From: a virus
Lineage: Duplodnaviria; Heunggongvirae; Uroviricota; Caudoviricetes
IMG/VR virus record: IMGVR_UViG_3300033150_000619
Strand: one strand, 5' to 3'
Length of the DNA stretch: 64,000 nucleotides
Shown here: positions 6,146 through 57,987 of the stretch, piece by piece
How the letters are laid out: every line of letters begins with the position of its first letter
How positions within the stretch are numbered: the first letter of the stretch is position 1
The notes under the pieces: model-generated
Seen by the model: the letters and a program-made list of their open reading frames with translations, nothing else
The model's database searches: none
Told to the model about the DNA's origin: nothing
Made by a program: the position numbers and the translations under genes

Positions 6146-6607
6146 TCACAGAAACTCGTCAGATACAAGTATGGGTGCGAACTGCGTAATCATTTGTTCT
6201 GCTTTCTCTCTAAGTTCCTCGAATTCCTTATCCTGTTGTTCTCGAGTTGTTGTATCTATGCCACACTTGATCATCTCTAAGAATTCAACAGGGTGTTCAA
6301 TCAAATAGGCTTGTATTCTATCTCTACGGTCACCCATGCCTGGCTCAAAGTAAATAGACCAAGAGTCAGGTGCCCACCTGGGCTTGTTAGATATCATTAT
6401 TGATGTCTTGAAGCCACTGCTGGGAAAGTACCATCTCTTAAAGTACTTACCGAACTGTTCTAGTATAGCCTCTTTCTCTATGGACTTAGACAGACTCTCC
6501 CTAGTGGAGGTTGCTTCTATAGCATCTACCTCTAACCACTTAGATCTAAGTCTTGTTAGATGCTCCAAGCACCACTCGAAGTCAGAAAGGTCTTCCAAAT
6601 CTACCAC
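6146..6607 (-). CDS. hypothetical protein
   Basis: 153 aa; contains palindrome copy at 6538-6551 encoding TRLRSKW. Confidence 0.4.
   Translation of the reverse strand: MVDLEDLSDFEWCLEHLTRLRSKWLEVDAIEATSTRESLSKSIEKEAILEQFGKYFKRWYFPSSGFKTSIMISNKPRWAPDSWSIYFEPGMGDRRDRIQAYLIEHPVEFLEMIKCGIDTTTREQQDKEFEELREKAEQMITQFAPILVSDEFL
6538..6551. repeat. dispersed palindrome ACTTAGATCTAAGT copy
   Basis: Exact 14-mer; inside 6146..6607 (codes LRSK). Confidence 0.95.
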
Positions 6608-7949
6608 GTTCCTTTGATGTATCTTCTAACCTCACCCATGTACCGAAGGGTGGGTCGCTGTTGTTTGCATTAGCACAGAGAATCCACAGTGTGTGGAAGT
6701 TATATCTGGACTTGTCGAGATAGTCTTGGTCCCCGTATAGGTCTGTCATGTATATCAGCAGCTTGCACTTAGGATAGTTTTCCTTGATGTGTTCGAAAAC
6801 TGGCTTAAACAGTGTACCACCGTATCCTCTACCTCTCATCTTACGAGGGTCGAATCCGTGATCAAAGTTATCCACCGTCTGTACTTCAGCATCACAGGTT
6901 ATTATTGTAAACTTGATCCTACCTTTGTATTGGTTGTCAAGCCCCACTATCTCAGAGATGAATTCCTTGTATTCATGGTCAGAAATAGAACCAGAGGTAT
7001 CTATGCCTACGAATACCTCTATCTCCTCTTTCTTTAGGTTCGGTATATAGAATCCTGCCTGTTGTGATCTCTTATTTGGCTTGAAGTATGTGTAGTCTTT
7101 AGGCAGAGTCGCCTGTACAAACTTCTTCACTATAGATTGCCATGGTACCTGTGACTCTGTCAATCCGTCAATAATCCTCTCCATACCGAGAGGAGCTTTG
7201 CCTTGTTGCTTGGCGTAGTTGTATGCTTCCTTTAGTACCTTATCCCAGTGAGGTTGTTGTTTTTCGTCTCCCTCTCCAAAGCCATATCCGTAGTTCTTTG
7301 AGCCATCGCCTTGCTGTGATGTCTTCTTACCTGTACCGTTGCACTGTTGGCATTTTTGCTGTGTCTTAGGATCTCTGCCGGTACCTTTACAGTTATCGCA
7401 CTGGTCGCTTTCTCCATCTCCCTGTTGGTTGTCAACGTCGATATAGATGTGCACATCTATCTGTCCCTCTCTCATTCCATCGAGCTGAGACTGTGATAGA
7501 GTTTGTAGATCTTCGTATACCTCTTCAGCGTACCAATCTCTGTACTTTGTATCATGAAGCCAGTTATTCGGTATATGGAAGTTGTTCTGCTTTAGAATCT
7601 CGTTGATAACCAAGTCAGCAGAGTAATTCCACATATCTTCATCCCTCGACATCTTACGATCAAGATGTAGAAGGACTGCATGATGTACTTCATGACATAT
7701 CACTGACAGTAATTCCTCTAAGCTCAATGAGTCTACGAAGTCAGGTGAGTAGAACAGTCTACCCCACTTATCCACGCCCATTGTTGGAACTAACTTCATC
7801 AGGAACTCGTTATCTGCCTCAATAAACCTGAGATGCAGAACAAGCGTCCCGAAGAAGGGTCTCTCCTTAAGAAGAATTACCCTAGCCTTCATCAGCTTCT
7901 CTAGAGGTGTTAGTTTCCTTAGTCTAAACTTCTTTATCTGTGACAACAC
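6582..7949 (-). CDS. VWA-domain protein with N-terminal HExxH metallopeptidase-like domain (partner of MoxR-type ATPase)
   Basis: 455 aa; CHEVHHAVLLH zinc-binding motif in N-terminal half; central Gln/Cys-rich linker; C-terminal VGIDTSGSISD MIDAS motif of a VWA domain. Confidence 0.7.
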   Translation of the reverse strand: MLSQIKKFRLRKLTPLEKLMKARVILLKERPFFGTLVLHLRFIEADNEFLMKLVPTMGVDKWGRLFYSPDFVDSLSLEELLSVICHEVHHAVLLHLDRKMSRDEDMWNYSADLVINEILKQNNFHIPNNWLHDTKYRDWYAEEVYEDLQTLSQSQLDGMREGQIDVHIYIDVDNQQGDGESDQCDNCKGTGRDPKTQQKCQQCNGTGKKTSQQGDGSKNYGYGFGEGDEKQQPHWDKVLKEAYNYAKQQGKAPLGMERIIDGLTESQVPWQSIVKKFVQATLPKDYTYFKPNKRSQQAGFYIPNLKKEEIEVFVGIDTSGSISDHEYKEFISEIVGLDNQYKGRIKFTIITCDAEVQTVDNFDHGFDPRKMRGRGYGGTLFKPVFEHIKENYPKCKLLIYMTDLYGDQDYLDKSRYNFHTLWILCANANNSDPPFGTWVRLEDTSKERGRFGRPF

Positions 7950-8551: not shown

Positions 8552-9979
8552 CTAACTAAACTCCTTCCCCACGAACAGGACCAGGTTATCAGATATCTGA
8601 TGGAATATCTTGTTCCTTGATATCCTATTCTTTAAGTTGGGATCTACTGCCCTGAGCATAGTCAAGAACACTACTGCCATCTCTGACCTAGCTGCCTCAT
8701 CCGTTGTTAATCTGAGACAGAACTGAAGGCAGGGATTTAGTATCTTATTGTCGTATTTGCTGGCTCTGTATCTCTCTGCTAGTGCAGAAAGGAGTGTCCA
8801 TACGATGCTGGTGTTTCTAAAGTCTATCCGCGTTCCCATTGGATCCTTGAGATAGCTTTCTATCGGTGGAAGCTGTTCTCTCATCTGTATGAAGTTGTGG
8901 AATTCGTTAGCTACTTCCAGTCCGACAGCCGTCGAAACCATCAGCCTAACCATGTTCAGATCGTCCGTACCTATCTCATTCAGTATATCAGATACAAACT
9001 CCCATGTCCTTGGAGTTGGTTGTGCGTCGACACCCATTGCATTTGGATCGAACTGATTCAGTGCTACAGCCTTAAAGTTTATGTAGCCAATAACCCATGG
9101 ATGAATACCAGCCGTTCCTGCCCATTCAGTCCATGCCTCTACTGATGGACTTCTTAGTGTCACCCACAGGAACCTAGATTTGAGAGGACTGGGCATAGGC
9201 GTCACACTTGCCATATCCTCCATCCTGTTACCGGCCGCAAAGATACTGTAGCCCTTTGGAACTCTGTACTCACCTAGACATCTTCTGAGTATTAGCTGGT
9301 ATGCAGCCTTTAGATTTAGCTCTGCAGCCAGATTCATTTCATCTAAGAAGATAATGCCACTTCCTGCAACTGGCAGGTCCGACGGTGGTGACCATCGCGT
9401 AACAAGCTCAATTATCTCTGCGTCTGGATACTGCTGTAGGACAGACACAGGAACTTTGAGTATCTTGTGCCTCTTTATCTGTTCTCCATCTTTGTCAGGG
9501 GGAAGTTTAGGAATGGTCTTAACCTCGTACTCCTTATGTTCTCCAGGTGTGTGGAGTTCTGGATTCTTTTCGACCTCGACACTTTCGAACTCGTCCTCGT
9601 CTATTGCAATAGGAACCTCCTCTATCAGACCGTCATTGGTCTTTATGAGTGCATACACCCATGGTATACCTCTCAGATCTGAAGGGTCTAATTGTGCTAG
9701 ACGTAGGTCAATGAGAACGAATTTGGTTGGGTCGTTGATGGCTGATGGATTGTCTTTGTACTCCACGTATTCCAGCCCAGCCTCTTCTGCAAGTTTCATT
9801 GCTACCTGCCTAACGAGGTCGGACTTTCCTATTGCTGGTGGTCCCTTGATAAACAAAGGTCTCTGTATCTGGTGGCAGACCCTTATTATCATAGAGCACT
9901 CTTCGTGGGAGACAGTCCTAGCCATATTCCCTAGGATACTTTGCTCGGAAGTACCACTACTTCTTCTTCTAGAAGACAT
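8552..9979 (-). CDS. AAA_5/MoxR-like ATPase
   Basis: 475 aa; Walker A GPPAIGKSD, Walker B IIFLDEMN followed by AAGN sensor, the typical AAA_5 arrangement; GGAG Shine-Dalgarno 7 nt upstream of ATG. Confidence 0.75.
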   Translation of the reverse strand: MSSRRRSSGTSEQSILGNMARTVSHEECSMIIRVCHQIQRPLFIKGPPAIGKSDLVRQVAMKLAEEAGLEYVEYKDNPSAINDPTKFVLIDLRLAQLDPSDLRGIPWVYALIKTNDGLIEEVPIAIDEDEFESVEVEKNPELHTPGEHKEYEVKTIPKLPPDKDGEQIKRHKILKVPVSVLQQYPDAEIIELVTRWSPPSDLPVAGSGIIFLDEMNLAAELNLKAAYQLILRRCLGEYRVPKGYSIFAAGNRMEDMASVTPMPSPLKSRFLWVTLRSPSVEAWTEWAGTAGIHPWVIGYINFKAVALNQFDPNAMGVDAQPTPRTWEFVSDILNEIGTDDLNMVRLMVSTAVGLEVANEFHNFIQMREQLPPIESYLKDPMGTRIDFRNTSIVWTLLSALAERYRASKYDNKILNPCLQFCLRLTTDEAARSEMAVVFLTMLRAVDPNLKNRISRNKIFHQISDNLVLFVGKEFS

Positions 9980-13907: not shown

Positions 13908-15671
13908 TCACTTACTGACCTGCGCCTTGTACATATCCTTTATCTTGATTATGGTATCTATGTCCTGTACTTTCTTATCCCATCTAATCCTAACCAACCT
14001 AGGACTTCTAAGTGAGAAGCCACTGCTGTACTGGTTGCTCTGGATTATTTCATAGGTAATAACCTCTACAACCAACTCCGGCTTAACACGGACTCCTTCT
14101 TTATCTTTAGAAAGAACAGTCAGAGACCTAGCTATTACTTCTAGGTCTGACTCAGATAGATTAGAGAAGTCACCTATCTCATAGAGAGTCTTCTTGGAGG
14201 GATGCTTCACTGCCAACCTAAAACTGGAGTAAACACCGGACTTCCTGCCGTGACCGTACTTAGCTTTGACGATGACTGCATCTATTGTATCTGTATTCTT
14301 CTTGAGTTTCATCCATGAGTTACTTCTCTTAGAGGGATAATACTTACCGTCTAGGTCCTTTACCATTATTCCTTCTTTACCCTTCTCAACCATAGAGTCG
14401 TAGTAAGCCATAAGTTCCTGTGGAGAGTTGAAGTAGTCTCCTTCTACAACTATCTCAGCCGGGAATATTGTATTGAGCTTACGGAACCTAGATCTAAAGT
14501 CCCAGTTAAGCATAGGGTGACCATCACAATACAATAGGTCGAATACTCTGATCTCTAAGTTCTCAGCACCATTGGTCAGGGCACTATGTGTGTCTCCTAT
14601 TGGCAGCTTCTCCCCATCAGAACCTCGAGCCATGAACTCGAACTCTGCTATGAAGGAAGTGGCACCAGTTACCTGCTTGAAGACGTTAGTTACATAACCT
14701 GCATCTGTAAAGGGAATACCATTCTGTAGGTGTCCGGTCCTCGAGAAGAATGCTATATTGTCTCCTGACTTATGGACTTGGATTCTGGCACCGTCATACT
14801 TCACATCTGCACGGCATGGGTACCTAACTCTTCCCGAATCAAATAGTTGAGCCAACATACAATTGATGAATGTACCTGGGACTATCTTCACATTATTGAG
14901 GGCATTATCCCCCTGCTGGGCAATGAGTAAGCCCTCAATCGTACCACGGAGCAAACACACATTGCTGAGTGTGTCCGCATTTACCCCAGCATATTCTCCA
15001 ACAGCAGAGATTATAGTCTCTGTGTTCAGACCCAGGTACACTCTCTTTCTCAACAACCAGGCGATATACTTAGCTTCTTCTTTCGTAGCTACTTCGAACA
15101 GTGAAACGATAGCACTGATCTTCTTGTGTGTCCCACTGGTCTCAGCTATCAGGTTGATTGAGTGATATACTTCATCTGCCAGCAGAGTTTCTTTGTCTCT
15201 GTCTTTAGCTAGGAAATAGGCTATGTCACCAATATCCCCATAGTCCTCTATGAGACTGTTCATCTCATTCCTACTCTTGTTAGATAGGATACGTAGGGCA
15301 TCTATTATTCTCTCATATCCTACGCCTATGGGCTTGTTCGACAGCTCACCCATTAGGAATTGAATCTTCTCTTTGTACGGTAAGGGTACTTCCCTAAGAA
15401 ATCTAATAGATTCTGTCCTCTTCCCCTTCAGGCTCTTTCTATCAGTGATAGCCTTATAGTGATTGATTATCTCACTGAACAGATACTTAGATCTAAGTGC
15501 TCTGCCTGAGCCGTATATCATGACCCAATGAAGGGGTAGGTTATACTCCCTAGAGATTTCCATCTCTGAGTATCCATTCTTCTTGAGTTCTTCAATAGCT
15601 CCTCTTAGGCTACCCTTCATCTTTAAGTAGTCTTCCAGAGAGGGCTTCTCTACAATACTCATAAGCGTCAA
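13908..15671 (-). CDS. lig: ATP-dependent DNA ligase
   Basis: 587 aa; ligase motif I ADVKYDGARIQV, motif IV EGIMVK, motif V WMKLKK; the size and an N-terminal domain resemble archaeal/eukaryotic-type Lig. Confidence 0.85.
   Translation of the reverse strand: MTLMSIVEKPSLEDYLKMKGSLRGAIEELKKNGYSEMEISREYNLPLHWVMIYGSGRALRSKYLFSEIINHYKAITDRKSLKGKRTESIRFLREVPLPYKEKIQFLMGELSNKPIGVGYERIIDALRILSNKSRNEMNSLIEDYGDIGDIAYFLAKDRDKETLLADEVYHSINLIAETSGTHKKISAIVSLFEVATKEEAKYIAWLLRKRVYLGLNTETIISAVGEYAGVNADTLSNVCLLRGTIEGLLIAQQGDNALNNVKIVPGTFINCMLAQLFDSGRVRYPCRADVKYDGARIQVHKSGDNIAFFSRTGHLQNGIPFTDAGYVTNVFKQVTGATSFIAEFEFMARGSDGEKLPIGDTHSALTNGAENLEIRVFDLLYCDGHPMLNWDFRSRFRKLNTIFPAEIVVEGDYFNSPQELMAYYDSMVEKGKEGIMVKDLDGKYYPSKRSNSWMKLKKNTDTIDAVIVKAKYGHGRKSGVYSSFRLAVKHPSKKTLYEIGDFSNLSESDLEVIARSLTVLSKDKEGVRVKPELVVEVITYEIIQSNQYSSGFSLRSPRLVRIRWDKKVQDIDTIIKIKDMYKAQVSK
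15485..15498. repeat. dispersed palindrome ACTTAGATCTAAGT copy
   Basis: Exact 14-mer; inside the DNA ligase gene (codes ALRSKY). Confidence 0.95.
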
Positions 15672-17723: not shown

Positions 17724-18695
17724 CTAATTCTCAAGTAATCTCAGGAATCCGTCACTGGTGATGTCTACTGGCTTTCTTTCTCTGTCAAAGTTACATAGAC
17801 GACAATCCATGATCTTGATCATGCGGACGTATGTCCCCCTCTTACCCAGTTCTTTTATCTGGTCAGAGTGGTATGTCCTACCATAATCTACTAGGATAGT
17901 GCCGTCTACAGCGTGTGCAATAGCATGACCACCAGCCATCTCATAGGCATCCCAAGTTTCCTTGGTACGCTGGTTCACCATGATAGCAGTTATTCCATGC
18001 TCCTGGTTGAACCTACATATTTCCATAACTCGGAACTTGAGGGCACCACGTGTGTCCTCAAGCATAGTTATAGAGTCTATGAGACTTAGCTTGATGCCAT
18101 ACTTCTGGCATACATACCTGTATGTTTCAGCAAAGTCCTTCCATTGACGGAGATCCGGATTGCTTACAGCATCCAACACAAACAGGTTGTCTTGAATAAC
18201 TGTCCAATCAAGTTCCAGTATGTCTGACTTAACCTTGAGGCGTGACTGTAGATCGAACCTCTCCGATTCAGTTTCAAATACATCCTCGGACGTAACCAGT
18301 AGTGTTGGGGTACCACCAGCAGCAGACTTCAATGCTATCTCTGATATTAGGATAGACTTACCTGAACCTGCCAGGCCGGTCATAGCCATCTGTGCTGTCT
18401 TAGGTACTCCGTTGATGCTGCTTCCCTTATGGTCGAGAAACATAGTATCTAAGAGAGTACCTGTAGGTATACCTTCAAGTTTCTTGAAGGAGAAGTCAAC
18501 GGCTTTGGGCTTAGATATCCTAGACTCGTAGTCTGCTAATCCTACTTCATCACCAAGTATGATATCGGATTGCATGGGTTCTTCGGCTAATTCCCACTCA
18601 TCAGTAGATGGTGTAGGTGGTTGTATCTGTCCTTGTTGTACCATTTGCATAGCCATAGCCATAGCTTTAGCCATGTCTTCAGGGTTCATACTCAT
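17724..18695 (-). CDS. KaiC/RadA-like RecA-superfamily ATPase
   Basis: 323 aa; Walker A GLAGSGKS, Walker B LIDSITML, GITAIMVNQ and C-terminal VRMIKIMDCR...F pattern typical of COG0467 KaiC-like ATPases. Confidence 0.65.
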   Translation of the reverse strand: MSMNPEDMAKAMAMAMQMVQQGQIQPPTPSTDEWELAEEPMQSDIILGDEVGLADYESRISKPKAVDFSFKKLEGIPTGTLLDTMFLDHKGSSINGVPKTAQMAMTGLAGSGKSILISEIALKSAAGGTPTLLVTSEDVFETESERFDLQSRLKVKSDILELDWTVIQDNLFVLDAVSNPDLRQWKDFAETYRYVCQKYGIKLSLIDSITMLEDTRGALKFRVMEICRFNQEHGITAIMVNQRTKETWDAYEMAGGHAIAHAVDGTILVDYGRTYHSDQIKELGKRGTYVRMIKIMDCRLCNFDRERKPVDITSDGFLRLLEN

Positions 18696-29364: not shown

Positions 29365-29440
29365 TGGAGCCGGAGGGAGGACTCTAACCCCCGATCATTA
29401 GCTTACAAGGCTAACGCTTTGGACACTAAGCTACTCCGGC
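29365..29440 (-). tRNA. tRNA-Thr(UGU), CCA encoded
   Basis: Minus-strand 76-nt fold: 7-bp acceptor GCCGGAG/CTCCGGC, D-stem GCTT/AAGC, anticodon stem TTAGC/GCTAA with loop CTTGTAA (anticodon TGT), T-arm GGGGG-TTAGAGT-CCTCC, discriminator T + CCA. Confidence 0.8.
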
Positions 29441-47233: not shown

Positions 47234-48133
47234 TTAGTTAATCTGGCCCATATGGGATAGGGTATTGGGTATCGCTACCCTTTCGCTTAATCTGCTTTGT
47301 TCTTTATACCACCGAATTAGTTTAGTATCGTCATATTCCCAATAACAACTTAGTATAGCTTCAAATAGCTGTGTAGCTGTATCAATGTCTAATTCCTTAA
47401 ACTTATCTATGATTGAATAGAAGCATTTACTGATATTACCAAATTGCATCTCAGCTGGTGAGTTGTATGGTATATCCCTACTTTTACCGTATACTATTGG
47501 TGTTATTCCTAATTTCTCTAACCCCTCAATAACTGCATTAACCTTTCTATCCATTCTTAGATATTGTATATTCTCACCGTTATCTATTGCTTTTTGTATG
47601 AGTTGGAGTATTCTAACTGTTGTTTCTGTCGGTTCATGGTATACGTGATAATACCTTTTCTGTGTCTTAAGGTTGACTAACATAAGTATCTTAATTATTG
47701 CTTTATCTTCATACCGTAGATATGTGCGTGCGTGCTTTCTTCTCTTTATTGAACCGTCATTTAATCCATATCCATCCATGGCGTGAGTAACCAAATCGGT
47801 AGATAGATTTGAATTATATGTTTGTTTAGATGTTTCATACCTTACGTTAAAGACTCTTTTAGGGATTATGTTTAAACTCTTTTTGAGTCTAAACAGACGG
47901 GTTTTATTAGTGTTTAATATGTGTGCTGAAACATCTAAGCCTAAACCTAATTCGTTATGTATTGTTAGTCTTTCTTCTATTTCCTTTTCCTTTTCCGCTG
48001 ACATGGCTATACCCCTAACCGTTTCACCATTATATAAATGGCTAAGGTTGTTTTGGGAGGTGTTGGGTGAAAGTGGTTGCCCCACTATATTCACCCTTTC
48101 TGTTTCTTTTTGAGGTTTCATCGTTCTCCTCAA
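47234..48133 (-). CDS. hypothetical protein (island boundary)
   Basis: 299 aa; GAGGAG Shine-Dalgarno 4 nt upstream of the ATG; no recombinase or transposase motif recognised. Confidence 0.45.
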   Translation of the reverse strand: MRRTMKPQKETERVNIVGQPLSPNTSQNNLSHLYNGETVRGIAMSAEKEKEIEERLTIHNELGLGLDVSAHILNTNKTRLFRLKKSLNIIPKRVFNVRYETSKQTYNSNLSTDLVTHAMDGYGLNDGSIKRRKHARTYLRYEDKAIIKILMLVNLKTQKRYYHVYHEPTETTVRILQLIQKAIDNGENIQYLRMDRKVNAVIEGLEKLGITPIVYGKSRDIPYNSPAEMQFGNISKCFYSIIDKFKELDIDTATQLFEAILSCYWEYDDTKLIRWYKEQSRLSERVAIPNTLSHMGQIN

Positions 48134-48357: not shown

Positions 48358-51300
48358 CTATGCTACATTGATGTAAGTCCTATCATTAAACTCCTGGAGC
48401 TTGCCCTTGTTGTATTTGTTAGTTGACCTATAATATCCTACGACTCTGGAGAATACCTCAGTTGCACCACCACAACTGCTGCAGTCATAGTGTACACCAC
48501 GTTGGTAGCTACCACATTTGGGGCATATACTAAACGTAGCAGAGAAGTCAAAGTATGGTACCTTGGTGTTCTTAGCTATACTCTCCGTTAGCTTAGCTAG
48601 ACCTGCTGGGTGCGGGTCAGCTTCTCCTACATATATTCTATGGACTGTACCACCGGTAAAGGTAGTGAGATATGGCTCTTCAAAGAGCAGTCTCTCCTCC
48701 ATTCCCATTTCATAGGAAGGTGGAGTTATCATAGAAGTATAGTATGGGGAATCTGTCTCTCCCATCGTATATATATCTGGGTACTTCTTCCTGTCTTTGA
48801 TGGCTAAGTCAGTAGCAGAACCTTCAGCCGGTGTCATCTCAAAGTTCCACAGCAGACCCGTTTCCTGCTGTGTTGTCTTAGTCCAGTTCCTGATGTATTG
48901 AAGGACTCTAATTGCTAAGTCTCCAGCTTCTATAATATTACTTCCTGTATGGTTGATGCACATCTCATTAAGACCGACTATACCAATAGTACGGAAGAAT
49001 CTACTCAGGTCTACTTCGTAGATTCTTGCTATAGGCATAAGTCCACTATTAATAGACTTATTGACTATATCGCCCTTAATCTCTAGTGCTTCCCTAGCCA
49101 TAGAAAGAGTCATGTCTAGGTTATCAAATAACTCACTCTCTTCACGACTGATATACCCCAGACGACCTAAATTCAGTGTTATTACTCCTATTGAACCTGT
49201 GTTGCCTGATAAAGCCCACCTACCTCCTGCAGGTGGTAGCTGACTTAGATCTAAGTTTAATCTACAGCAGTTATGCGTTATTACACCATTAGCTAGTTGA
49301 TACAGATGCGGCTCTGGTAATTCAAGAGTATATACAGTGTCAGCGTGATACTTCTCCTTAATGTCTATGACCGATACCCACTGATAACCACCTTGATCAG
49401 TGTACTTACTGCTATTATCCTTACAGATACGTATTACCTGTGATGTCTTTAGTGTTCTAGTATATTTTATACCAAGGCTTCCTAATACATCACAGATATC
49501 ATCGGCTAACTCTGGATTGTTAATGTGTAGTTCATTGTCTCTATTGTAGCCGTCCCCCTGCCATAGACCATCTATCAGTCCTTGTCTGAAGTCTACAGAC
49601 CCTCTAAAGACAGCAGCTCTTAGTTTCTTCTCGGTGGATAACCTTCCACTCACGAAGCTTCTGACTAATCCTCTAACAGATTTATCATACGTTAATAGGG
49701 AAACAGCAGAGGATCTAGGATCAGGTACCTTAATCGACCTCGCTCCTAACGTGCGTTGCAGGAACTTAGTTATAAAATCTATATGTTCTGCTTCATCAGA
49801 ATGGAAGGTGAACTGTATCGCTTTACCAGTGTCTAGTCCTTCTGCAATGTATAGTCCAATTAGCCTACCTAGATCATAAGTTCCATATTCTGTATCATAT
49901 GGAGTAGATGCCATTGGGAGTCTCACTCCCGGTCGTAAGTCAACGGCTCTAATCACTCCATCATCTGTTAGGAATAGATGTGATTTCGTAACCTTTAGTA
50001 TGTTACCGTTGTCTAGATAAACATACAATAGATTGCTATCGTACTGATAGGCATCTACGTAGCAGGGAACAAACTCACCATTGACTAGTGCTTCTATGTT
50101 GTGTTTAGTGCTCGTTCTATAGAGATTCCTTAAGGTATCTCTAGAAACTCTACCATCAACGCGATAGATGACTTTGGTTTCTCCCTGGAAGCACATTGCT
50201 TGTACGCTGTCTTCATCAATACCAGAACCTACATAGTTCATGTAGTACCAGTTACCGAACTTAGCATCTGTACGCATTATCTCATAGAATAGATCTGAAC
50301 TAAAATCTGTAGACTTGATCAGATTTAGAGTTGGTATAGGGAACGTAAACACAGATCCTATTCCGTCCCCTTCATACAGAACATGATTAAAGGCTTTGAT
50401 TATAGTCTCTGCTTCATCTGCAAAGTCTTCATATGTATTACCATTGTCTAATACAGGTAACTCCCTGAGTTGTTTAGGACACTTAGAGTCAAATATTAAA
50501 TTAGTAAAGGGTGTATTACCAGTGAAGGCTATCTTACCATTTCTAAGAACTATCATGCTATTGTTGTCTGTATTAATACCGTACACTCTTCCATCGTAAG
50601 GAATAGTCTCAACCTCTGCATAAGTTCTATCTGTGAAGTCCCTAACTATAGATATATCATAAACTCCGTTGTCTCTTAATCTATTATTGGTTAAGTACCC
50701 AGCAATAACACATAATTCTTGGAATCTCAATAAGTCGGATTCGGAATTAGTATATAACCTAAATCTGGACTTAGATCCATCTCCCAACCTATATTCAGAT
50801 AAGAACAATCTGGCCTGGTTTCTTGACAACAAAGATGTCCACTTAGGTATGGATTTACTATATCCACTCTTATAGAAAGTAAATCTCTTGACTGGTGCAT
50901 TAGCACACCCGCCGGAATATTCAGACTCTGTCCATTCTATACCATTATCAGACAGAGTGGATCTTATGCACTCTATATTCTCTGGATTGAGTATAGATTG
51001 TCCTATTACTATTCTATCCTCTTTGGTTTTGTTAGGTGTTATATTACCCTCAGAGACTATCCATGCCCACAACCTTATTTCTTCATCCGTAATTGGATAA
51101 TCTTCCCTGTCAATAAGTCCCATAGCAGGAACTAAGACTCTAGATTTCCTATCGAATATGTCTTTAGCCATCTCAAATCTAGGAGTATCATCATAATAGG
51201 GAAATGTAATAACTCTGTGTTCTGGAACGACTAATTGATCAGTTCTCTCATTGTGTATGTGATACATTAATCCATTATAATTGTATCTAACTACCTTGTG

Positions 51301-52947
51301 GATGGGCAATACCTCTATTTCTCTAGTCTCCATATTGAAGGTTAAGGCTAAGTCGGACTCAGATATCTCATCTATTGATTTCCATCCATCTAGAGTTAGA
51401 GTAAGGGTATCTTCAGATACACACTGATAACCTGCTCTAGAAGGATAATTTAGATTGAATATAAGCCTCTGCATCTCCTGCTTAACTTCCTCATAGGATA
51501 GGTTGTCGTGGTAGACAAACGGGGCTAACAACCAGTTGACATTAGATATAGCTTGGGCACCAGCCCATTCCTGCTGTGATGTAGCCATAAAGTTCACTAT
51601 ATGGTCTACAGCTGTATTAAGGTGCTTAGCAGGCTTAGATCTAATTCTTGTAGTTATTAGTCCCATATTCAACAGTTTGAACAGATCAGCACCATAACAA
51701 TTATGTACTTTGAGTCCAACAGTAGAGAATATACCAGATTCTGTTGTTATATCATAGACCATCTTCCCCTTCCAAGGAATCCTCCATAGCTTCTTTACCC
51801 TAGGAGTTCTGTCGTAGTAATCTATATTGCCTGGCTTTCCAACTCTGTACCGAATATCATTCTTACTGGTAATCTTTAATGATTCAGAGAATAGAGTGAT
51901 ACATCTCTCTTCCATGAATATCTTAAGTTTGAATATATTCTCAGTGGTACTAAATCTCATTGCTACCGGAAGACGTATGATATCAAACAGTGTCTTTAGT
52001 TGGCTGACTAATTCATATGATGTAGTGTCTATCCCAATTATAGATGCTCCTTGTTTAGGGGTGATACACCAACCGTCTCCGTCTATTATACCTGCTATGA
52101 TATCAAAGAAGGTCTCTTGTGTGAAGTCAGTATATGGAATAGCTTTATTGTGGGATCCGTTCTCCGGAACAGAGAATAGACGTTTGACTAACAGATTATC
52201 TCCATTAATAACTATATCCTTCCCGTATATCGAGAAATCTATATTATAGTCTACTAATACCCTTAGTATCTTGTTCTTCTCTGGTGAATCGTATTCTATA
52301 CAGTAGTTCTTCCCTCTTTTGAATCCTTTGGCTATGTACATTCCTAACAACCAGGCAATATCAGACGCAATGTGTGTTCTTCCAAAGACAAATCGTCTAG
52401 ATGGAAGAGCTGTAGTTAACTTATCTCCTACATTCAGTTCTGAAGCAGGCACAGTAGTTTCTGCAAGTCCTACAAAGATAGGGTGATCCTCTGTTACAAT
52501 TAGTATCCTTCCATTGTCTGTTTCAATTCCAATTAGATCACAGTGTGAGGGATGTGACTGTGTATCAATTATATTAACCCAGGTAGCATTGTCCTGTAAA
52601 GTCTCTAGATTGCTCTTACCTTGTACGTCTTTAAGAGACGTAAAGAAAGGTCTCTTGATGTTAGCATCTCGAACTAGGATTGATGTAGAGCCTATATACG
52701 AATAGGGAACTATACCATCGCTGAGATTATGTATATGGAAGTACCCATCTAAGTAAGCCTTCCTAATCATATCGGGATACTGGCTTAGTGAGTATCTCTT
52801 AATGTTCTTCTTAGTCATATATGCCTGTAGACCTGAGTATGATATATCTGAGTTAGCGTTCTCCTTAATCTGCCAGTCACTCTTCTGTATGTAACTCTCA
52901 ATATCATTGCTCCACGAATCGTCAGTAGTCCTTAATAGCTCGTCCAT
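48358..52947 (-). CDS. nrdD: anaerobic ribonucleoside-triphosphate reductase (class III RNR) interrupted by three inteins
   Basis: 1529 aa; N-terminal YLDGYFHIHNLSDG; conserved CCRLNLD just after intein 3; C-terminal Zn ribbon CPKCGSY...CSSCGG and glycyl-radical motif SRVVGYYRS; the extein sums to about 637 aa; GGAG Shine-Dalgarno 8 nt upstream. Confidence 0.85.
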   Translation of the reverse strand: MDELLRTTDDSWSNDIESYIQKSDWQIKENANSDISYSGLQAYMTKKNIKRYSLSQYPDMIRKAYLDGYFHIHNLSDGIVPYSYIGSTSILVRDANIKRPFFTSLKDVQGKSNLETLQDNATWVNIIDTQSHPSHCDLIGIETDNGRILIVTEDHPIFVGLAETTVPASELNVGDKLTTALPSRRFVFGRTHIASDIAWLLGMYIAKGFKRGKNYCIEYDSPEKNKILRVLVDYNIDFSIYGKDIVINGDNLLVKRLFSVPENGSHNKAIPYTDFTQETFFDIIAGIIDGDGWCITPKQGASIIGIDTTSYELVSQLKTLFDIIRLPVAMRFSTTENIFKLKIFMEERCITLFSESLKITSKNDIRYRVGKPGNIDYYDRTPRVKKLWRIPWKGKMVYDITTESGIFSTVGLKVHNCYGADLFKLLNMGLITTRIRSKPAKHLNTAVDHIVNFMATSQQEWAGAQAISNVNWLLAPFVYHDNLSYEEVKQEMQRLIFNLNYPSRAGYQCVSEDTLTLTLDGWKSIDEISESDLALTFNMETREIEVLPIHKVVRYNYNGLMYHIHNERTDQLVVPEHRVITFPYYDDTPRFEMAKDIFDRKSRVLVPAMGLIDREDYPITDEEIRLWAWIVSEGNITPNKTKEDRIVIGQSILNPENIECIRSTLSDNGIEWTESEYSGGCANAPVKRFTFYKSGYSKSIPKWTSLLSRNQARLFLSEYRLGDGSKSRFRLYTNSESDLLRFQELCVIAGYLTNNRLRDNGVYDISIVRDFTDRTYAEVETIPYDGRVYGINTDNNSMIVLRNGKIAFTGNTPFTNLIFDSKCPKQLRELPVLDNGNTYEDFADEAETIIKAFNHVLYEGDGIGSVFTFPIPTLNLIKSTDFSSDLFYEIMRTDAKFGNWYYMNYVGSGIDEDSVQAMCFQGETKVIYRVDGRVSRDTLRNLYRTSTKHNIEALVNGEFVPCYVDAYQYDSNLLYVYLDNGNILKVTKSHLFLTDDGVIRAVDLRPGVRLPMASTPYDTEYGTYDLGRLIGLYIAEGLDTGKAIQFTFHSDEAEHIDFITKFLQRTLGARSIKVPDPRSSAVSLLTYDKSVRGLVRSFVSGRLSTEKKLRAAVFRGSVDFRQGLIDGLWQGDGYNRDNELHINNPELADDICDVLGSLGIKYTRTLKTSQVIRICKDNSSKYTDQGGYQWVSVIDIKEKYHADTVYTLELPEPHLYQLANGVITHNCCRLNLDLSQLPPAGGRWALSGNTGSIGVITLNLGRLGYISREESELFDNLDMTLSMAREALEIKGDIVNKSINSGLMPIARIYEVDLSRFFRTIGIVGLNEMCINHTGSNIIEAGDLAIRVLQYIRNWTKTTQQETGLLWNFEMTPAEGSATDLAIKDRKKYPDIYTMGETDSPYYTSMITPPSYEMGMEERLLFEEPYLTTFTGGTVHRIYVGEADPHPAGLAKLTESIAKNTKVPYFDFSATFSICPKCGSYQRGVHYDCSSCGGATEVFSRVVGYYRSTNKYNKGKLQEFNDRTYINVA
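49243..49256. repeat. dispersed palindrome ACTTAGATCTAAGT copy
   Basis: Exact 14-mer inside the nrdD extein right after CCRL (codes NLDLSQ). Confidence 0.95.
49270..50193 (-). mobile_element. intein 3 in nrdD
   Basis: aa 919-1226; starts CFQGETKVIYRVDG, ends VYTLELPEPHLYQLANGVITHN followed by CCRL; internal GLYIAEG / LIDGLWQGDG LAGLIDADG-like motifs. Confidence 0.7.
50515..51423 (-). mobile_element. intein 2 in nrdD
   Basis: aa 509-811; starts CVSEDTLTLTLDGW, ends RVYGINTDNNSMIVLRNGKIAFTGN followed by Thr. Confidence 0.65.
51634..51645. repeat. dispersed palindrome variant CTTAGATCTAAT (11/12)
   Basis: Inside the nrdD extein (codes RIRSK). Confidence 0.8.
51700..52542 (-). mobile_element. 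intein 1 in nrdD with LAGLIDADG homing-endonuclease domain
   Basis: aa 136-416; starts with Cys after SHPSH, ends MVYDITTESGIFSTVGLKVHN followed by Cys; two LAGLIDADG-like motifs (LLGMYIAKGF, IAGIIDGDGW). Confidence 0.75.
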
Positions 52948-53145: not shown

Positions 53146-55242
53146 ATGCCCTATAAGTCTATCTCTGAGTTACCTGCCAGTGTCAGAAATACACTACCAG
53201 TGTCTGCATTAAGGATATGGATGAATGCATATAATTATGCCATAGCCAATCCAGATAAAGTCGAAGGTGAGCCAGCCCAGTATGCTTGGGGAGCTGTTAA
53301 GAAAGTCTATGAGAAAAGGGACGGTAAGTGGGTTAAGAAGAACAACTTAGATCTAAGTGTGCAGGAGATAGAAGACCTGCAGCTTACTACTGCTGACATT
53401 GTAGACATACTTCCTAAGAGGTTCTGGGAAGTTCCTGTTAGATATGGGTACAGAGTTGCATCTGACATGGGTAGATTGCTATGGAATGGGTTGAAGAGTA
53501 CGTTTACTTCTAGTGTCAGCCTTGATGACTACGTAGGACAGCCTATCCACCTAATAGAAGATGTAGTATCCTACGGTACCTTCATCCTTAAGAAATCAGT
53601 AAGTAAGAGGAAGGATGAGGACGAAGAAGATGAGTTTGACTTCTATGTATATGAAGTAGACTGGCTTAGGAAGTTCCCTGGTCCTTTGCCTGTTAGGGTT
53701 AGGAAGAAAGAGTATGGTCTACTCAATAGGAAAGACTATTCCTTTAAGATGTTAAGTGGACTTAGTAATAGAGACCTACTCTATATACACTCTTACTGCC
53801 ATAGTGGTCACCATCTCGGGATAAAGGAGTTTCATGACCTTGTGGCTAAGGAAATGGAGAGAAGAGGTATAATACATCCAGTCTATGCACCAATGGATAA
53901 GGACACACCTGAAATACCTGCTCCTGACATTGGGGATACACCTCAATTAGATATAGAGGATAAAGTTACATTAGAGCAGTTCCTGTCTATGCTACCAGAT
54001 CAGTTTTCTCTAGACGCTCCTCCACCTAAGATGTGGGTTACAGGGGATATAGTTAACAAAGGGATAACTACAATATCTGATGGCATAGACATAGTGGTAG
54101 GGCAGGATGAAGTAGATCCCCGCATAATCAGTAAGATAGCCAGCTTAATAGGAGATGACAGAGTTAAGAAGAGTATCAGGGTCATATTCTCTACAGAGGG
54201 TCCTCCCTTTGGATATAGTATTCCCCTTTACAGGGATGCATTCCAGAAACTAAGCTATAGAAGCACATTTAATCCTACAGACTACCTTAGATATACGCGT
54301 CCATCAGACAATACATATACTAATCTACAGACTTTATGGGATGAGTGGGGCAGCGTTAGAATAGATGACGGTTTATTCGTAGAGAAGAGATATGATGGTA
54401 TACCTGTATCTGTACATCATTTCCCTGGCAGTCGTACAATAATCCGCAAGAACAAGGTACCACTTAAGTTAGATTCGATAGAGTTAGAACTTAGTAAAAT
54501 TGATAGACAGTTTGTAGGTATGGGTACAATAGTCCAGTATGACTGCAACAACATCAAAGTGAATAAGATAGAGGAGCTCTGTAAGCCTATCCCCGCTGGT
54601 GCTGAAAAGTTAAGGAAGAAGCCATTTGGATACACACACGCATCTGACTGTACAGTCCTCCACTTACACGAAATAGTATTCTTAGATAATACACCAATAC
54701 ATAACGGATCATATAAAGAAAGGGTAGAGTTAATGGACTCCCTCATCCCGGATGATTTAATCCATGTGAGGAAAGTACCCTATTCATTGGTTAAGTCCAA
54801 AGCAGAATTAGAGAGTGCAGTATCTCAGTTATTGAGTATCGGATCAGACGGTGTCAACATTAAGGAAGCTACCTCAACATTCAACTTCAGTGGTAAGAGT
54901 AAACAGATGGTAGACTTAGACAAAGACAGTGATGTTATTGTAATAAAGCTAAAGGACTGTACTCTGTTTCATGATGAGAATATATGTCCTCTCTACACCT
55001 TAACACATCATTCATTAACTAAAGTAGCTATTGAAGAATTACAGTACCCAGTGAAGTGTCAATTAGCATCATTAGTAAAGTGTCCCTTGGTGAAGGACTA
55101 CTACTATCAGTTATCTAAGCCTGTAGAAATTAAGAACTGGTTTATACCCTTGACAGAACCAGATCCTTCAGATACTCATACTCCTCTAAATCAATCAGAC
55201 CAGCCTTATAGGACTTATACAGAAACCGGAGGGCTTTCCTAG
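53146..55242 (+). CDS. ChaB-domain protein fused to a large C-terminal domain with degenerate ligase-like motifs
   Basis: 698 aa; N-terminal 70 aa (MPYKSISELPASVRNTLPVSALRIWMNAYNYA...AWGAVKKVYEKRDGKWVKK) closely match the ChaB N-terminus as recalled from memory; C-terminal FVEKRYDGIP, VLHLHEIVF, DGVNIKE and IVIKLKD resemble ligase motifs I, III, IV, V with the catalytic positions altered; AGGAGAG Shine-Dalgarno 6 nt upstream. Confidence 0.6.
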   Translation: MPYKSISELPASVRNTLPVSALRIWMNAYNYAIANPDKVEGEPAQYAWGAVKKVYEKRDGKWVKKNNLDLSVQEIEDLQLTTADIVDILPKRFWEVPVRYGYRVASDMGRLLWNGLKSTFTSSVSLDDYVGQPIHLIEDVVSYGTFILKKSVSKRKDEDEEDEFDFYVYEVDWLRKFPGPLPVRVRKKEYGLLNRKDYSFKMLSGLSNRDLLYIHSYCHSGHHLGIKEFHDLVAKEMERRGIIHPVYAPMDKDTPEIPAPDIGDTPQLDIEDKVTLEQFLSMLPDQFSLDAPPPKMWVTGDIVNKGITTISDGIDIVVGQDEVDPRIISKIASLIGDDRVKKSIRVIFSTEGPPFGYSIPLYRDAFQKLSYRSTFNPTDYLRYTRPSDNTYTNLQTLWDEWGSVRIDDGLFVEKRYDGIPVSVHHFPGSRTIIRKNKVPLKLDSIELELSKIDRQFVGMGTIVQYDCNNIKVNKIEELCKPIPAGAEKLRKKPFGYTHASDCTVLHLHEIVFLDNTPIHNGSYKERVELMDSLIPDDLIHVRKVPYSLVKSKAELESAVSQLLSIGSDGVNIKEATSTFNFSGKSKQMVDLDKDSDVIVIKLKDCTLFHDENICPLYTLTHHSLTKVAIEELQYPVKCQLASLVKCPLVKDYYYQLSKPVEIKNWFIPLTEPDPSDTHTPLNQSDQPYRTYTETGGLS
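53345..53358. repeat. dispersed palindrome ACTTAGATCTAAGT copy
   Basis: Exact 14-mer inside the plus-strand ChaB-fusion gene (codes NNLDLSV). Confidence 0.95.
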
Positions 55243-55702: not shown

Positions 55703-56080
55703 CTAAGATTCCTTCTTGAATATTGCAGACTTTGGTATTACACAACTGTCGTCTTTGTACATCTTCCATATGCCTTGGAGCTTCTCCCCTCCGAAGATCA
55801 TAGTTGTACCTTCTTCACTATCTATGATATTAATTAAGCCAGAGTCTATATTGACGATATTACTCTCAATACCCTTGGGAACGGGTCTCAGCTTCCTTTC
55901 TATAACTATGGTAGATTCGGTTGTAGTAGGATCATCTACTAAACTCCATTCAGAGTTCCTACCCTCAACACGTATGTCCCAGTGTGTCTTAACTTCACCG
56001 TCTACAACAATATCATGCTGATTAAGTGTAAAGTCCCTGGGTTTTATATCCTTGAGCATATCCTTAGTTATCTTCACCAT
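55703..56080 (-). CDS. hypothetical protein
   Basis: 125 aa; first gene of the distal structural-like module. Confidence 0.4.
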   Translation of the reverse strand: MVKITKDMLKDIKPRDFTLNQHDIVVDGEVKTHWDIRVEGRNSEWSLVDDPTTTESTIVIERKLRPVPKGIESNIVNIDSGLINIIDSEEGTTMIFGGEKLQGIWKMYKDDSCVIPKSAIFKKES

Positions 56081-56883
56081 CTGTACCTCTGTTTGAACTT
56101 AGCCTCTAAGGTAGTACTAGTCTTCTTGATGTATGTTAAGGCTTCTATATCCTGAAGTGATAGGGTAGCTGCCTGTGGTCTGAAGTAGATATCAGAGGTT
56201 GTATCCATTAGGTAGAGAATATATGGTGTCCTGTTGAGTGGAGAACCTATATCATACAAAGATGTACTCTCTGTTAGATTTACTGTATAGTCCTCCCCTG
56301 GTTCTGGCTCGGTAATGTTCCATGTAACCTCAAGTTGAGGAGAAACACCTGAACTGTGCTCAAAGGAGCAGCCCCTCCTTAAATGGGTACCATCATCACT
56401 TCTACCGTCATGATCATCCCAAAAAATGACTAGATCATTTCCCGCAACCCAGTTTGGTCTATCAACAATTTCTTGGATGATTGTCTTAATATTGGGGCTA
56501 GTATAAACAACTCCTGCTGTCCATGGGGGAATGTCATCCCAATAAACAACGGCTGAGGTTCTTGGTCTCGTTGAGTAGTTGTCGTAGTTTGTGAAGGTTA
56601 CTGCATTATCAGAGTCTTCCCCTCTAAGTTTGCTTCTTACACCTGTAGAACTATCTGACCTTCTTGCTCTGATATTAAAATATGCACTTTCTATCGTTGC
56701 ACCTTGAGGAATATCAACTCCCACAAACCGCCCCCCACCACCTGCTTTTACCTCACTTGTACCCCAATTACCGACATGCCACCTTTCATTTATAAGTTGA
56801 CAAACCCAATCAGTTCCATTGTAACTGACGAAGACATCATCGGTATTACCTTCAATATTCCATGTGTTGGTTGTCATTCTCAA
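56074..56883 (-). CDS. hypothetical structural-like protein
   Basis: 269 aa, Trp/Asn/Asp-rich, Gly run GGGGRFVGVD. Confidence 0.4.
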   Translation of the reverse strand: MRMTTNTWNIEGNTDDVFVSYNGTDWVCQLINERWHVGNWGTSEVKAGGGGRFVGVDIPQGATIESAYFNIRARRSDSSTGVRSKLRGEDSDNAVTFTNYDNYSTRPRTSAVVYWDDIPPWTAGVVYTSPNIKTIIQEIVDRPNWVAGNDLVIFWDDHDGRSDDGTHLRRGCSFEHSSGVSPQLEVTWNITEPEPGEDYTVNLTESTSLYDIGSPLNRTPYILYLMDTTSDIYFRPQAATLSLQDIEALTYIKKTSTTLEAKFKQRYRW

Positions 56884-57987
56884 TCACCCCCTTATCTTAG
56901 TGTATATGTCTGTAACTGTATCCTTGATGGTTAATGCTACCGATATGGCTGCAGTATAGAGACCTGTACTAGTCTCTTTAGTTAACATATCTGTAGCTAA
57001 ATCTTTTAGGTACACAGTCACATACCTACTGAGTACTGTCCACCATGTATAGAACTCTGATATGATGGGAGCCTCGCTCCACGTTCTATACCATTGAGAC
57101 ACCCTACTAAAGTAATCACTTAGATCTAAGCCCTGTAATCTAACCGATTGATATTCCTTAACTATGAAGTCCTGTGCTGAGATACCTTGGGTCCTTAGCA
57201 TGAAATATGTCCTGTAGAGGATATGGTATAGATTGATAGGGGTATACGGACTCCTGTACCAACTTAATGTCCTGTTATAGGCATCCTGTATTCTAATATC
57301 CGTAATCCTGCGATGGTTGTATCTATTGGAGATATTGTCAATGACGGACATACCTGTCTCTGATACCCACCCATACACTTTGGAGAGATAACCTGCCATT
57401 AGAGTACTGTCATACATATTACGGTAATATTCTACCTCCCTGAAGAAGATGGAGTATAGACTTAGGTACTCATTGAATACGAATAACATATATTGCTTAA
57501 AGATAAAGTATCCATCTACAACTACAGAGTCTACTAGAGTCCTACTGTATCCCCACACTCTCTGTGATGTAGCCGAGAGAGATGTAGAATGAGTCAGCTC
57601 CTTACGTACATCCCATATTCTGTTATATAGACTATACATGGACCATGATTGGATCAAAGATGGTCTAAAGTCTGCCTGGCGAATAGCAGATGCAATTAGA
57701 AGTAATGTGTCCTCACATACCTGCCTAAAACCATACGTTGTTATTATGTAATCTAAGAGATATATGGACTCTACAAATCCTTGAGATACAAGTGGCTTTA
57801 GATAACTAAAGTAATCTGCTATAGAGATACCCTGGATTAATGACCACTGTAACTGAGATACTGCGCTGTAGTAGTGTGATAGTATTAAAGATTGTAATAG
57901 ACTTAGATACTCGCCAACAATACCATAACCTCGGGTTACGAGCTGTTGGTGCTCGCCGAGTCCTCTGGTTATGATGGTATGTGGCAT
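56884..57987 (-). CDS. Tyr/Ser-rich structural-like protein (baseplate or fibre-associated?)
   Basis: 367 aa, low-complexity Y/S/L-rich; abuts the previous gene; contains palindrome copy 57118-57131 encoding QGLDLSDY. Confidence 0.4.
   Translation of the reverse strand: MPHTIITRGLGEHQQLVTRGYGIVGEYLSLLQSLILSHYYSAVSQLQWSLIQGISIADYFSYLKPLVSQGFVESIYLLDYIITTYGFRQVCEDTLLLIASAIRQADFRPSLIQSWSMYSLYNRIWDVRKELTHSTSLSATSQRVWGYSRTLVDSVVVDGYFIFKQYMLFVFNEYLSLYSIFFREVEYYRNMYDSTLMAGYLSKVYGWVSETGMSVIDNISNRYNHRRITDIRIQDAYNRTLSWYRSPYTPINLYHILYRTYFMLRTQGISAQDFIVKEYQSVRLQGLDLSDYFSRVSQWYRTWSEAPIISEFYTWWTVLSRYVTVYLKDLATDMLTKETSTGLYTAAISVALTIKDTVTDIYTKIRG
57118..57131. repeat. dispersed palindrome copy (exact 12-mer, 13/14 of the 14-mer)
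   Basis: ACTTAGATCTAAGc inside 56884..57987 (codes GLDLSD). Confidence 0.95.

Follow-up and report, generated by a model that had tools for sequence, protein, structure and literature searches.

The gene at positions 53146-55242 (+) of a 64,000-nucleotide stretch of viral DNA (IMG/VR virus record IMGVR_UViG_3300033150_000619, Caudoviricetes; the stretch is referred to below as the window) encodes a 698-residue protein that combines a ChaB domain with the adenylation fold of an ATP-dependent DNA ligase, the catalytic motifs of which are largely substituted. We favour, with moderate confidence, the interpretation that the protein is a non-catalytic pseudo-ligase which descended from a multidomain viral nucleic-acid end-processing ligase and which would act as an adaptor or scaffold that binds DNA ends or nicks.

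The ligase fold and the register of its motifs

Residues 408-588 match Pfam family PF01068 with 30.3 bits (gathering cutoff 26.2). When a profile was built from the four close homologues, it aligned over the whole adenylation domain, with the motifs in the correct register, to archaeal ligases of solved structure (2hiv, E=5e-7; 4eq5, 2e-6; 2cfm, 2e-5). The AlphaFold model aligns with human LIG1, LIG3 and LIG4 and with archaeal ligases over ∼ 200 columns (Foldseek E∼3e-8) and has a Foldseek probability of 1.0 to more than 50 ligase structures. Because Pfam, the profile comparison with solved ligases and the predicted fold independently agree, the ATP-dependent ligase adenylation fold is genuine. 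A first-pass annotation of the window had proposed a ligase-type nucleotidyltransferase fold with disabled motifs, and held that the motif resemblance would be coincidental if no such fold could be detected. Profile search and structure prediction both found the fold, and the proposal emerges stronger than it was made, with three independent lines for the fold and three of ten scored catalytic positions retained (see below). A chance resemblance of motifs with no nucleotidyltransferase fold behind it has a negligible probability: the Pfam score lies above the gathering threshold, the profile is in register, the Foldseek probability is 1.0 and 42 of 43 relatives scanned match PF01068 as well.

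The register was fixed by residue-by-residue alignment to 2hiv, 4eq5 and 2cfm and places the motifs as follows:

54379-54399 (+), motif I, V412-EKRYDG-418, with R415 at the lysine position of KxDG
54511-54543 (+), motif III, F456-VGMGTIVQYD-466, which aligns with FIIEGEIV / VIVEGELV and has M459 and T461 at the D-x-E positions
54655-54681 (+), motif IIIa, V504-LHLHEIVF-512, which aligns with LNLFDILY / VFLFDLMY
54844-54864 (+), motif IV, S567-DGVNIK-573
54907-54924 (+), motif V position, M588-VDLDK-593, in gap-free alignment with WIKLKR / WLKIKP

Two of the motifs named in the first-pass annotation hold their places: VEKRYDG is indeed motif I with an altered lysine position, the KxDG nucleophile being replaced by Arg (R415), and SDGVNIK aligns with motif IV of the solved ligases. 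The other two have to be reassigned. VLHLHEIVF, read before as motif III, corresponds to motif IIIa, the real motif III being FVGMGTIVQYD. IVIKLKD, read as motif V, lies nine residues beyond the motif V position and is unconserved in the closest relatives (SIILDNC in P0003, NINIETC in P0004); given the gap-free spacing from motif IV and the absence of KLK in these relatives, it is not motif V, and the true K-x-K position is D590-L-D592. An origin from capping enzymes or RNA ligases was considered too. Those Pfam models find weak matches in a few relatives, with DNA_ligase_A_M always far stronger; the best matches are always DNA ligases, so the capping-enzyme-like relationship suggested earlier is not favoured.

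Loss of catalytic residues

An exhaustive profile search returned 2245 relatives at E<=1e-3, 83 of them at E<=1e-30, and a second homologue search with a diverse alignment yielded 7 proteins. Residues were tallied in 137 representatives that span the ligase domain, at ten catalytic positions that are 78-99% conserved. The individual positions compare as follows:

Nucleophile: K in 126/137 representatives, R415 in this protein
Motif I Arg: R in 77%, P420 in this protein
Motif III Asp: D in 107/137, M459 in this protein
Motif III Glu: E in 118/137, T461 in this protein
Motif IIIa Asp: D in 128/137, E509 in this protein
Motif IV Glu: E in 124/137, D568 in this protein
Motif IV Lys: K in 124/137, kept as K573 in this protein
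Motif V first Lys: K in 123/137, D590 in this protein
Motif V second Lys: K in 112/137, D592 in this protein

The aligned solved ligases all carry Lys at the KxDG position occupied here by R415. The D-x-E of motif III and the K-x-K of motif V are both absent, and only motif IV still conforms to (E/D)G...K, with its Lys kept and a conservative change of Glu to Asp. In adenylylation the lysine of motif I acts as the nucleophile, and step 1 is blocked when it is mutated; motif VI of the OB domain is likewise required for step 1, and the Lys of motif V and the Glu of motif III make contacts with the AMP phosphate and ribose (PMC7470946). Judged from this established mechanism, the loss of the nucleophile, of the motif III and motif V contacts and of the module at the OB position (see below) makes ligase chemistry by this protein very unlikely. 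Repurposing for nucleotide binding, an option raised in the first-pass annotation, looks unlikely as well, since the residues that touch the ribose have been lost (R420 to P, E461 to T) and those that touch the phosphate have been lost or reversed in charge (K415R, K590D, K592D). Nucleic-acid binding or scaffolding is a plausible function.

The protein might instead still be active, as a ligase or nucleotidyltransferase in which the register has shifted and the adjacent Lys414 (EK-R-YDG) serves as nucleophile, a possibility hinted at in the first-pass annotation. Lys414 is invariant in four proteins of the ChaB-headed clade described below, D417, G418 and K573 of motif IV are kept, and the ligase domain is under constraint. 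Across the 137 relatives, however, position 414 is K in 55, E in 29 and P in 25, and with K in only 55 Lys414 is not a conserved catalytic residue. Such an enzyme would also have to work without the Glu of motif III, the two Lys of motif V, the Arg of motif I and the OB-position module, whereas motif VI of the OB domain is indispensable for step 1 (PMC7470946). Moreover, other relatives that lack the OB-position module show the same route to inactivity, with N, L, C or D in place of the nucleophile. We regard activity through Lys414 as most improbable.

A five-part protein

The open reading frame (ORF) of 698 residues with an ATG start was confirmed, and the start is judged correct because the N-terminus MPYKSISELP is common to homologues (P0002, P0003). 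The protein is built of five parts, followed by a C-terminal tail:

53146-53340 (+), ChaB domain, residues 1-65; Pfam PF06150, PDB 1sg7
53431-53895 (+), ASCH/PUA-like β-barrel with two helices, residues ∼ 96-250
53953-54270 (+), probable MNT-like fold (minimal Pol-beta-type nucleotidyltransferase), residues ∼ 270-375
54337-54930 (+), ligase adenylation (nucleotidyltransferase) domain, ATP-dependent and catalytically degenerate, residues ∼ 398-595
54958-55107 (+), four-cysteine module with C605, C614, C638 and C646, ending K650-x-Y-Y-Y654
55108-55242 (+), C-terminal tail, residues 655-698, with the stop codon; low predicted local distance difference test (pLDDT) score

The first-pass annotation had recognized the ChaB and ligase-like domains and had missed the two folds in the middle of the protein, the four-cysteine module and the loss at the OB position. 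Its N-terminal ChaB domain is well founded: residues 9-65 match the full PF06150 model (1-60; E=7e-12; 46.2 bits, the curated cutoff being 27) and the Escherichia coli ChaB structure 1sg7 is matched at E=8e-4. In other viruses (P0005-P0013, L006-L038) ChaB forms the N-terminus of proteins of 510-614 residues with coiled-coil C-termini, which show weak similarity to head maturation proteases (phrog_530, E=1e-6). Since it occupies the N-terminus of these proteins in many other viral contigs, tailed viruses seem to use ChaB as a modular N-terminal domain. A tblastn search against deposited phages found similarity to the 698-residue protein in the ChaB part only, and a PHROGs search returned no family matching the protein.

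A structural model of residues 76-395, built with 35 aligned relatives, shows two folded domains (mean pLDDT 81). The first has the β-barrel fold of the ASCH/PUA-like superfamily, and its structural matches include binders of DNA and of RNA. For the second, the four best PDB matches of the family profile are all Pol-beta transferases, each of them weak (E=0.1-0.4), in an alignment centred on G[GS]...DxD. Within the family G300 is 96% and D315 95% conserved; here G300 is kept, but D312-G-I-D315 stands in place of the family D-I-D. Among the 65 relatives that could be aligned over the module, conservation of the four cysteines near the C-terminus reaches 98-100%, and these cysteines are present in 78-79 of 79; the module is predicted with low structural confidence and may bind zinc. 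In the alignment of close homologues, the C-terminal tail is shared with P0002 only.

Joint loss of two active sites and the OB-position module

Twelve residues separate motif V from the four-cysteine module in this protein, compared with ∼ 135 residues in intact relatives. The distance from motif V to the first Cys is 11-16 residues in the protein and 13 representatives and 118-174 residues in almost all others. In the relatives, the module that fills this OB position ends in TWMFPxFxxKRxxKKEPDT, which resembles motif VI. A C-terminal OB domain with motif VI is absent from the 698-residue protein, which has no Pfam PF04679 match.

Loss of the module goes together with loss of catalytic residues. 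All members without it (n=14) have six or fewer of the ten catalytic residues, and all members with it have at least seven. The second nucleotidyltransferase follows the same pattern: its D-h-D is found in 76 of 89 members that have the OB-position module and is missing from all nine members without it in which the region could be aligned. In a neighbour-joining tree the ChaB clade stands apart from the other groups that lack the module, with five changes by Fitch parsimony, and a Pfam scan of 43 family members found ChaB in this clade only. Because the clades without the module are separate in the tree and ChaB is confined to one of them, the two active sites and the OB-position module appear to have been lost in concert at least twice.

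The ChaB-headed clade comprises the present protein, its 99% twin P0001, P0002, P0003 and P0004. The present protein, P0003 and P0004, all without the OB-position module, are sister to P0002 (1032 residues), an intact ChaB-bearing protein which retains K, E, E..K, KxK, the OB-position module, the D-I-D of the MNT-like domain and a partner of 621 residues. Degeneration is partial in P0003 and P0004 (KYNG and KYDG, neither with K-x-K) and furthest advanced in the present protein.

The gene remains under constraint

An intact ORF of 660-700 residues is found in four lineages that are only 39-48% identical. Between the homologues at hand synonymous sites have reached saturation, which precludes dN/dS, and constraint was read from the proportions of non-synonymous (pN) and synonymous (pS) differences: in each of the five domains, the dead ligase domain among them, pN is 0.23-0.43 and pS, which is saturated, 0.65-0.89. 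A 99%-identical contig differs at nine codons, five of them synonymous and four non-synonymous. The intact ORF across divergent lineages, with pN well below pS in every domain, indicates that the gene is not a pseudogene and is still under constraint.

These data bear on the idea that the gene is a functionless, decaying relic left behind when a canonical ligase was acquired. Such a ligase is present in the window:

13908-15671 (-), intact three-domain ATP-dependent DNA ligase; phrog_114, E=5e-37

All three of its domains are matched in Pfam (DNA_ligase_A_N, 4e-15; A_M, 8e-29; A_C, 8e-7) and all of its motifs are intact, motif VI included (KYDG, AEFEF, VFDLLY, EGIMVK, KLKK, RSPRLVRIR). The 698-residue protein has, moreover, lost several catalytic sites and domains, and its partner gene is truncated. 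A decaying relic would nevertheless hardly keep an uninterrupted ORF over such divergence, or non-synonymous divergence so far under the saturated synonymous value in all domains; the four-cysteine module and many core residues are invariant, and similar reduced forms persist in other clades. We consider it very improbable that the gene is a relic.

A viral parent family and its phosphoesterase partner

The family from which the protein derives typically has members of 800-2000 residues, arranged in the order metallo-beta-lactamase (MBL) nuclease, ASCH, helical insert, MNT-like transferase, ligase, OB-position module (where present) and four-cysteine module. Among the 43 members scanned against Pfam, an N-terminal MBL domain was found in 15, and PF01068 matches reach E=1e-33. 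Occasional extras are inteins, LigD_N, Pyr_excise (pyrimidine-dimer glycosylase), a methyltransferase and a Nudix-like segment. The family was confirmed at 337 IMG/VR loci, many on contigs of 100-156 kb, compared with two full-length copies in species-representative genomes, both on short contigs binned into archaeal metagenome-assembled genomes from Guaymas; on these numbers the family is viral. A literature search found no description of a ChaB-ligase fusion, of the MBL-ASCH-MNT-ligase-C4 architecture or of a triple-phosphoesterase architecture, and this large family is apparently undescribed.

In 28 of 33 loci examined, a partner gene lies directly downstream of the fusion-ligase gene. Its product of 500-1040 residues has three repeats of the LigD-type 3'-phosphoesterase (PE) signature H-x(n)-H-x-D-x-R, and one repeat of the 621-residue L001 partner matches Pfam LigD_N (E=4e-7). 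Partner copies of about 1000 residues appear to carry inteins. Triple-PE partner genes include:

L001, 13203-15068
L063, 11548-13653
L065, 8200-10485
L075, 8220-10202
others at further loci

The partner is reduced to a single-repeat ORF in the virus studied here (125 residues) and in L004 (126 residues). In the window this ORF is:

55703-56080 (-), stand-alone LigD-type 3'-phosphoesterase of 125 residues; partner hidden Markov model, E=2.5e-12

Both the L004 ORF and the C-terminal part of the L001 partner are homologues of the 125-residue PE. This PE has the His/His/Asp/Arg site of LigD-type enzymes (H22, H33, D35 and R37, all invariant), and a profile that includes it matches archaeal PE structures over their full length (3p4h, E=5e-7; 3p43, 1e-6; 5dmp, 9e-5). 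We take this linked PE to be a remnant of the multi-PE partner gene of the family, as judged by homology. Pfam scans of the family and of the partner found no AEP primase-polymerase, the only hint being a weak PriX match (E=0.025).

Proposed history and role

We propose that the ancestor comprised an MBL nuclease, ASCH, MNT and ligase adenylation domains, a ∼ 135-residue OB-position module and the four-cysteine module, encoded upstream of a three-PE partner gene. In the present lineage the nuclease would have been swapped for ChaB, and the OB-position module would then have been deleted. The ligase active site would have decayed (K415R, D459M, E461T, K590D, K592D, R420P), the DxD of the second nucleotidyltransferase would have been disrupted and the partner gene would have shrunk to the single 125-residue phosphoesterase. 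The present protein would have lost self-adenylylation and nick sealing, and its remaining modules (ChaB, ASCH, two dead nucleotidyltransferase folds and the four-cysteine module) may bind DNA ends or nicks as an adaptor or scaffold. It would probably work with the neighbouring phosphoesterase, the sealing being left to the canonical ligase (13908-15671). Baculovirus ChaB has been described as a putative DNA-binding protein (PMC6832367).

Several points weigh against this proposal. The deleted ∼ 135-residue module would be an OB domain by its position and its motif-VI-like ending; this identity is positional only, because a profile of the module found no match in the PDB and hhalign against the C-terminus of the window's own canonical ligase gave a probability of 2.6%. 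The tree is a crude neighbour-joining tree of fast-evolving sequences. Since K414 is invariant in the ChaB clade and E413, D417, G418 and K573 are retained, some residual nucleotide or adenine binding is possible. The PE gene lies on the opposite strand here, with a BppU_N gene in between, and it is conserved adjacency in the family that argues for a probable functional link. DNA binding by any of the modules is deduced from fold only.

The 698-residue gene sits at the edge of a tail/baseplate block: downstream of it lie the BppU_N gene and tail-like genes. This position agrees with another role, in which the protein would be delivered with the virion or made early, to protect DNA ends or nicks or to act as a decoy against host nucleases, repair or defence, and would not scaffold viral repair. 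ChaB heads the head-maturation-protease-like proteins of other viruses mentioned above, baculovirus ChaB homologues are implicated in DNA replication and budded-virus production (PMC6832367), and the recurrence of inactive forms suggests a selectable non-catalytic role. However, the phrog_530 matches are weak, the rest of the protein has no homology to structural proteins and its packaging is putative. The adjacency to structural genes is perhaps incidental, given that on its other flank the gene has NrdD, the anaerobic ribonucleotide reductase, as a conserved neighbour. We consider this role unlikely, if conceivable.

Returning to the adaptor or scaffold that we favour, naturally inactivated ATP-dependent ligases still under selection are rarely documented. 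Here the nucleophile, the ribose and phosphate contacts, the closing domain and the second transferase site appear to have been lost together, and more than once. Such repeated joint losses imply that the ligase fold may have a selectable non-catalytic use in viruses, for example in break recognition or scaffolding. More tentatively, we speculate that the family is a widespread module of large, probably archaeal, tailed viruses that has repeatedly been made fully non-catalytic, and that its ChaB version is a break or end sensor or protector, possibly delivered with the virion. A family that joins nuclease, transferase, ligase and phosphoesterase in a LigD-like arrangement is also a possible source of end-processing and ligation enzymes, and offers a route into the genome repair or maturation of large uncultured viruses. 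The function of the 698-residue protein is putative, and we expect the protein to concern specialists in ligases and viral DNA metabolism.

Genome context and a dispersed palindrome

Nearly all ORFs of at least 150 residues in the window are on the - strand, and the 698-residue gene belongs to the minority on the + strand, as the first-pass annotation had noted. Its conserved, divergently transcribed upstream neighbour is NrdD, an arrangement shared by L001-L005. The neighbour and other features of the window are:

48358-52947 (-), NrdD, anaerobic ribonucleotide reductase with inteins; Pfam NRDD, E=9e-125, Intein_splicing, LAGLIDADG_3
6582-7949 (-), HNH endonuclease-like protein; phrog_1314, E=2e-91
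8552-9979 (-), ATPase; phrog_1297, E=4e-73
17724-18695 (-), primase/helicase, weak match; phrog_239
29365-29440 (-), tRNA-Thr(TGT)
30154-30226 (-), tRNA-Gln(TTG)
31484-32509 (-), 'lipoprotein' family protein; phrog_200

NrdD is 1529 residues long here and 585-588 residues in the related viruses L001 and L004; it contains inteins that have LAGLIDADG homing-endonuclease domains, at least two of them and probably three. Most large ORFs of the window have no family match, among them proteins of 1061 and 539 residues near the 3' end. There is no further member of the fusion family within the window, and tblastn of the canonical ligase against deposited phages gave no match. Most genes compared are 99-100% identical to IMGVR_UViG_3300033149_001352 (L005, L140; 136,445 bp); the neighbours at 47234-48133 (70%), 56074-56883 (76%) and 56884-57987 (93%) are much more divergent, and the window and that record differ by about 460 bp in how far the canonical ligase lies from the ChaB gene.

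The first-pass annotation had also placed a copy of a dispersed palindrome in the gene. By k-mer counting, this 12-nucleotide element, CTTAGATCTAAG, was located as follows:

53346-53357 (no strand assigned), CTTAGATCTAAG, encoding N67-L-D-L-S71 in the linker after ChaB
6539, 13121, 15486, 19390, 28475, 32701, 37129, 49244, 53346 and 57119, exact copies in the window (n=10)
445 and 51634, copies with one mismatch
8932, 10198, 16249, 18391 and 19576 in L004 and 8004 in L001, copies in related viruses

The 12 exact and one-mismatch copies in the window compare with 0.43 expected, a strong over-representation. The element contains GATC and a BglII site, and is mostly intragenic in the two frames that avoid stop codons (L-D-L-S in seven copies, L-R-S-K in two). 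Related viruses carry it at corresponding sites, inside NrdD and, in homologues of the present gene, behind ChaB, where the L004 copy falls on the same codon position. Its distribution suggests a conserved DNA-level site for a putative dimeric binding protein. A search for inverted repeats with 12-nucleotide arms found no hairpin in the 53146-55242 gene.

Comparison with known systems

The protein shares its adenylation fold with Lig1-type ATP-dependent ligases (PF01068; Sulfolobus solfataricus 2hiv, Thermococcus sibiricus 4eq5 and human LIG1) and has motifs I, III, IIIa, IV and V in like order and spacing. It differs from them in the substitution of the nucleophile Lys, the motif III Asp/Glu, the motif V Lys-x-Lys and the motif I Arg, in the absence of an OB domain, motif VI and the DNA_ligase_A_N DNA-binding domain, and in being flanked by ChaB, ASCH, the MNT-like fold and the four-cysteine module.

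The LigD end-joining system of bacteria and archaea combines a ligase, a 3'-phosphoesterase and a primase-polymerase, and its PE module may be fused to the ligase or come from a separate adjacent gene (PMC7470946). The present system resembles LigD end joining in that a ligase-family gene is linked to LigD-type PE domains, to which the parent family adds end-processing modules on a single polypeptide. In contrast to LigD, the second transferase is of the minimal Pol-beta type, with no AEP turning up in the Pfam scans, the nuclease of the parent family has the MBL fold and the partner has three PE repeats; in the virus studied here the ligase is predicted to be dead and one PE is left.

Bacterial RMMBL-LigB nuclease-ligase fusions are known from Opitutus terrae and from an Antarctic Dry Valley metagenome (PMC10140301) and, like the parent family, have an MBL-fold nuclease N-terminal to an ATP-dependent ligase. 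These fusions keep DNA_ligase_A_N, A_M and A_C and lack the ASCH, MNT-like and four-cysteine modules. They are cellular, whereas the family described here is viral, and the present protein has ChaB where MBL would be.

The ChaB domain is the same 60-residue domain as in E. coli (1sg7) and in baculovirus proteins of the Ac58/59/60 type. Known ChaB proteins are small and single-domain, whereas here the domain heads a multidomain protein of 698 residues. The second central domain resembles the MNTs (HI0073, HEPN-MNT antitoxins and AF0614) by its fold match and in the region of the G-x(12)-D..D signature, and is putatively of this type; unlike them, the protein has the first Asp of DxD displaced (D-G-I-D), has no HEPN partner and carries the fold embedded between ASCH and ligase domains.

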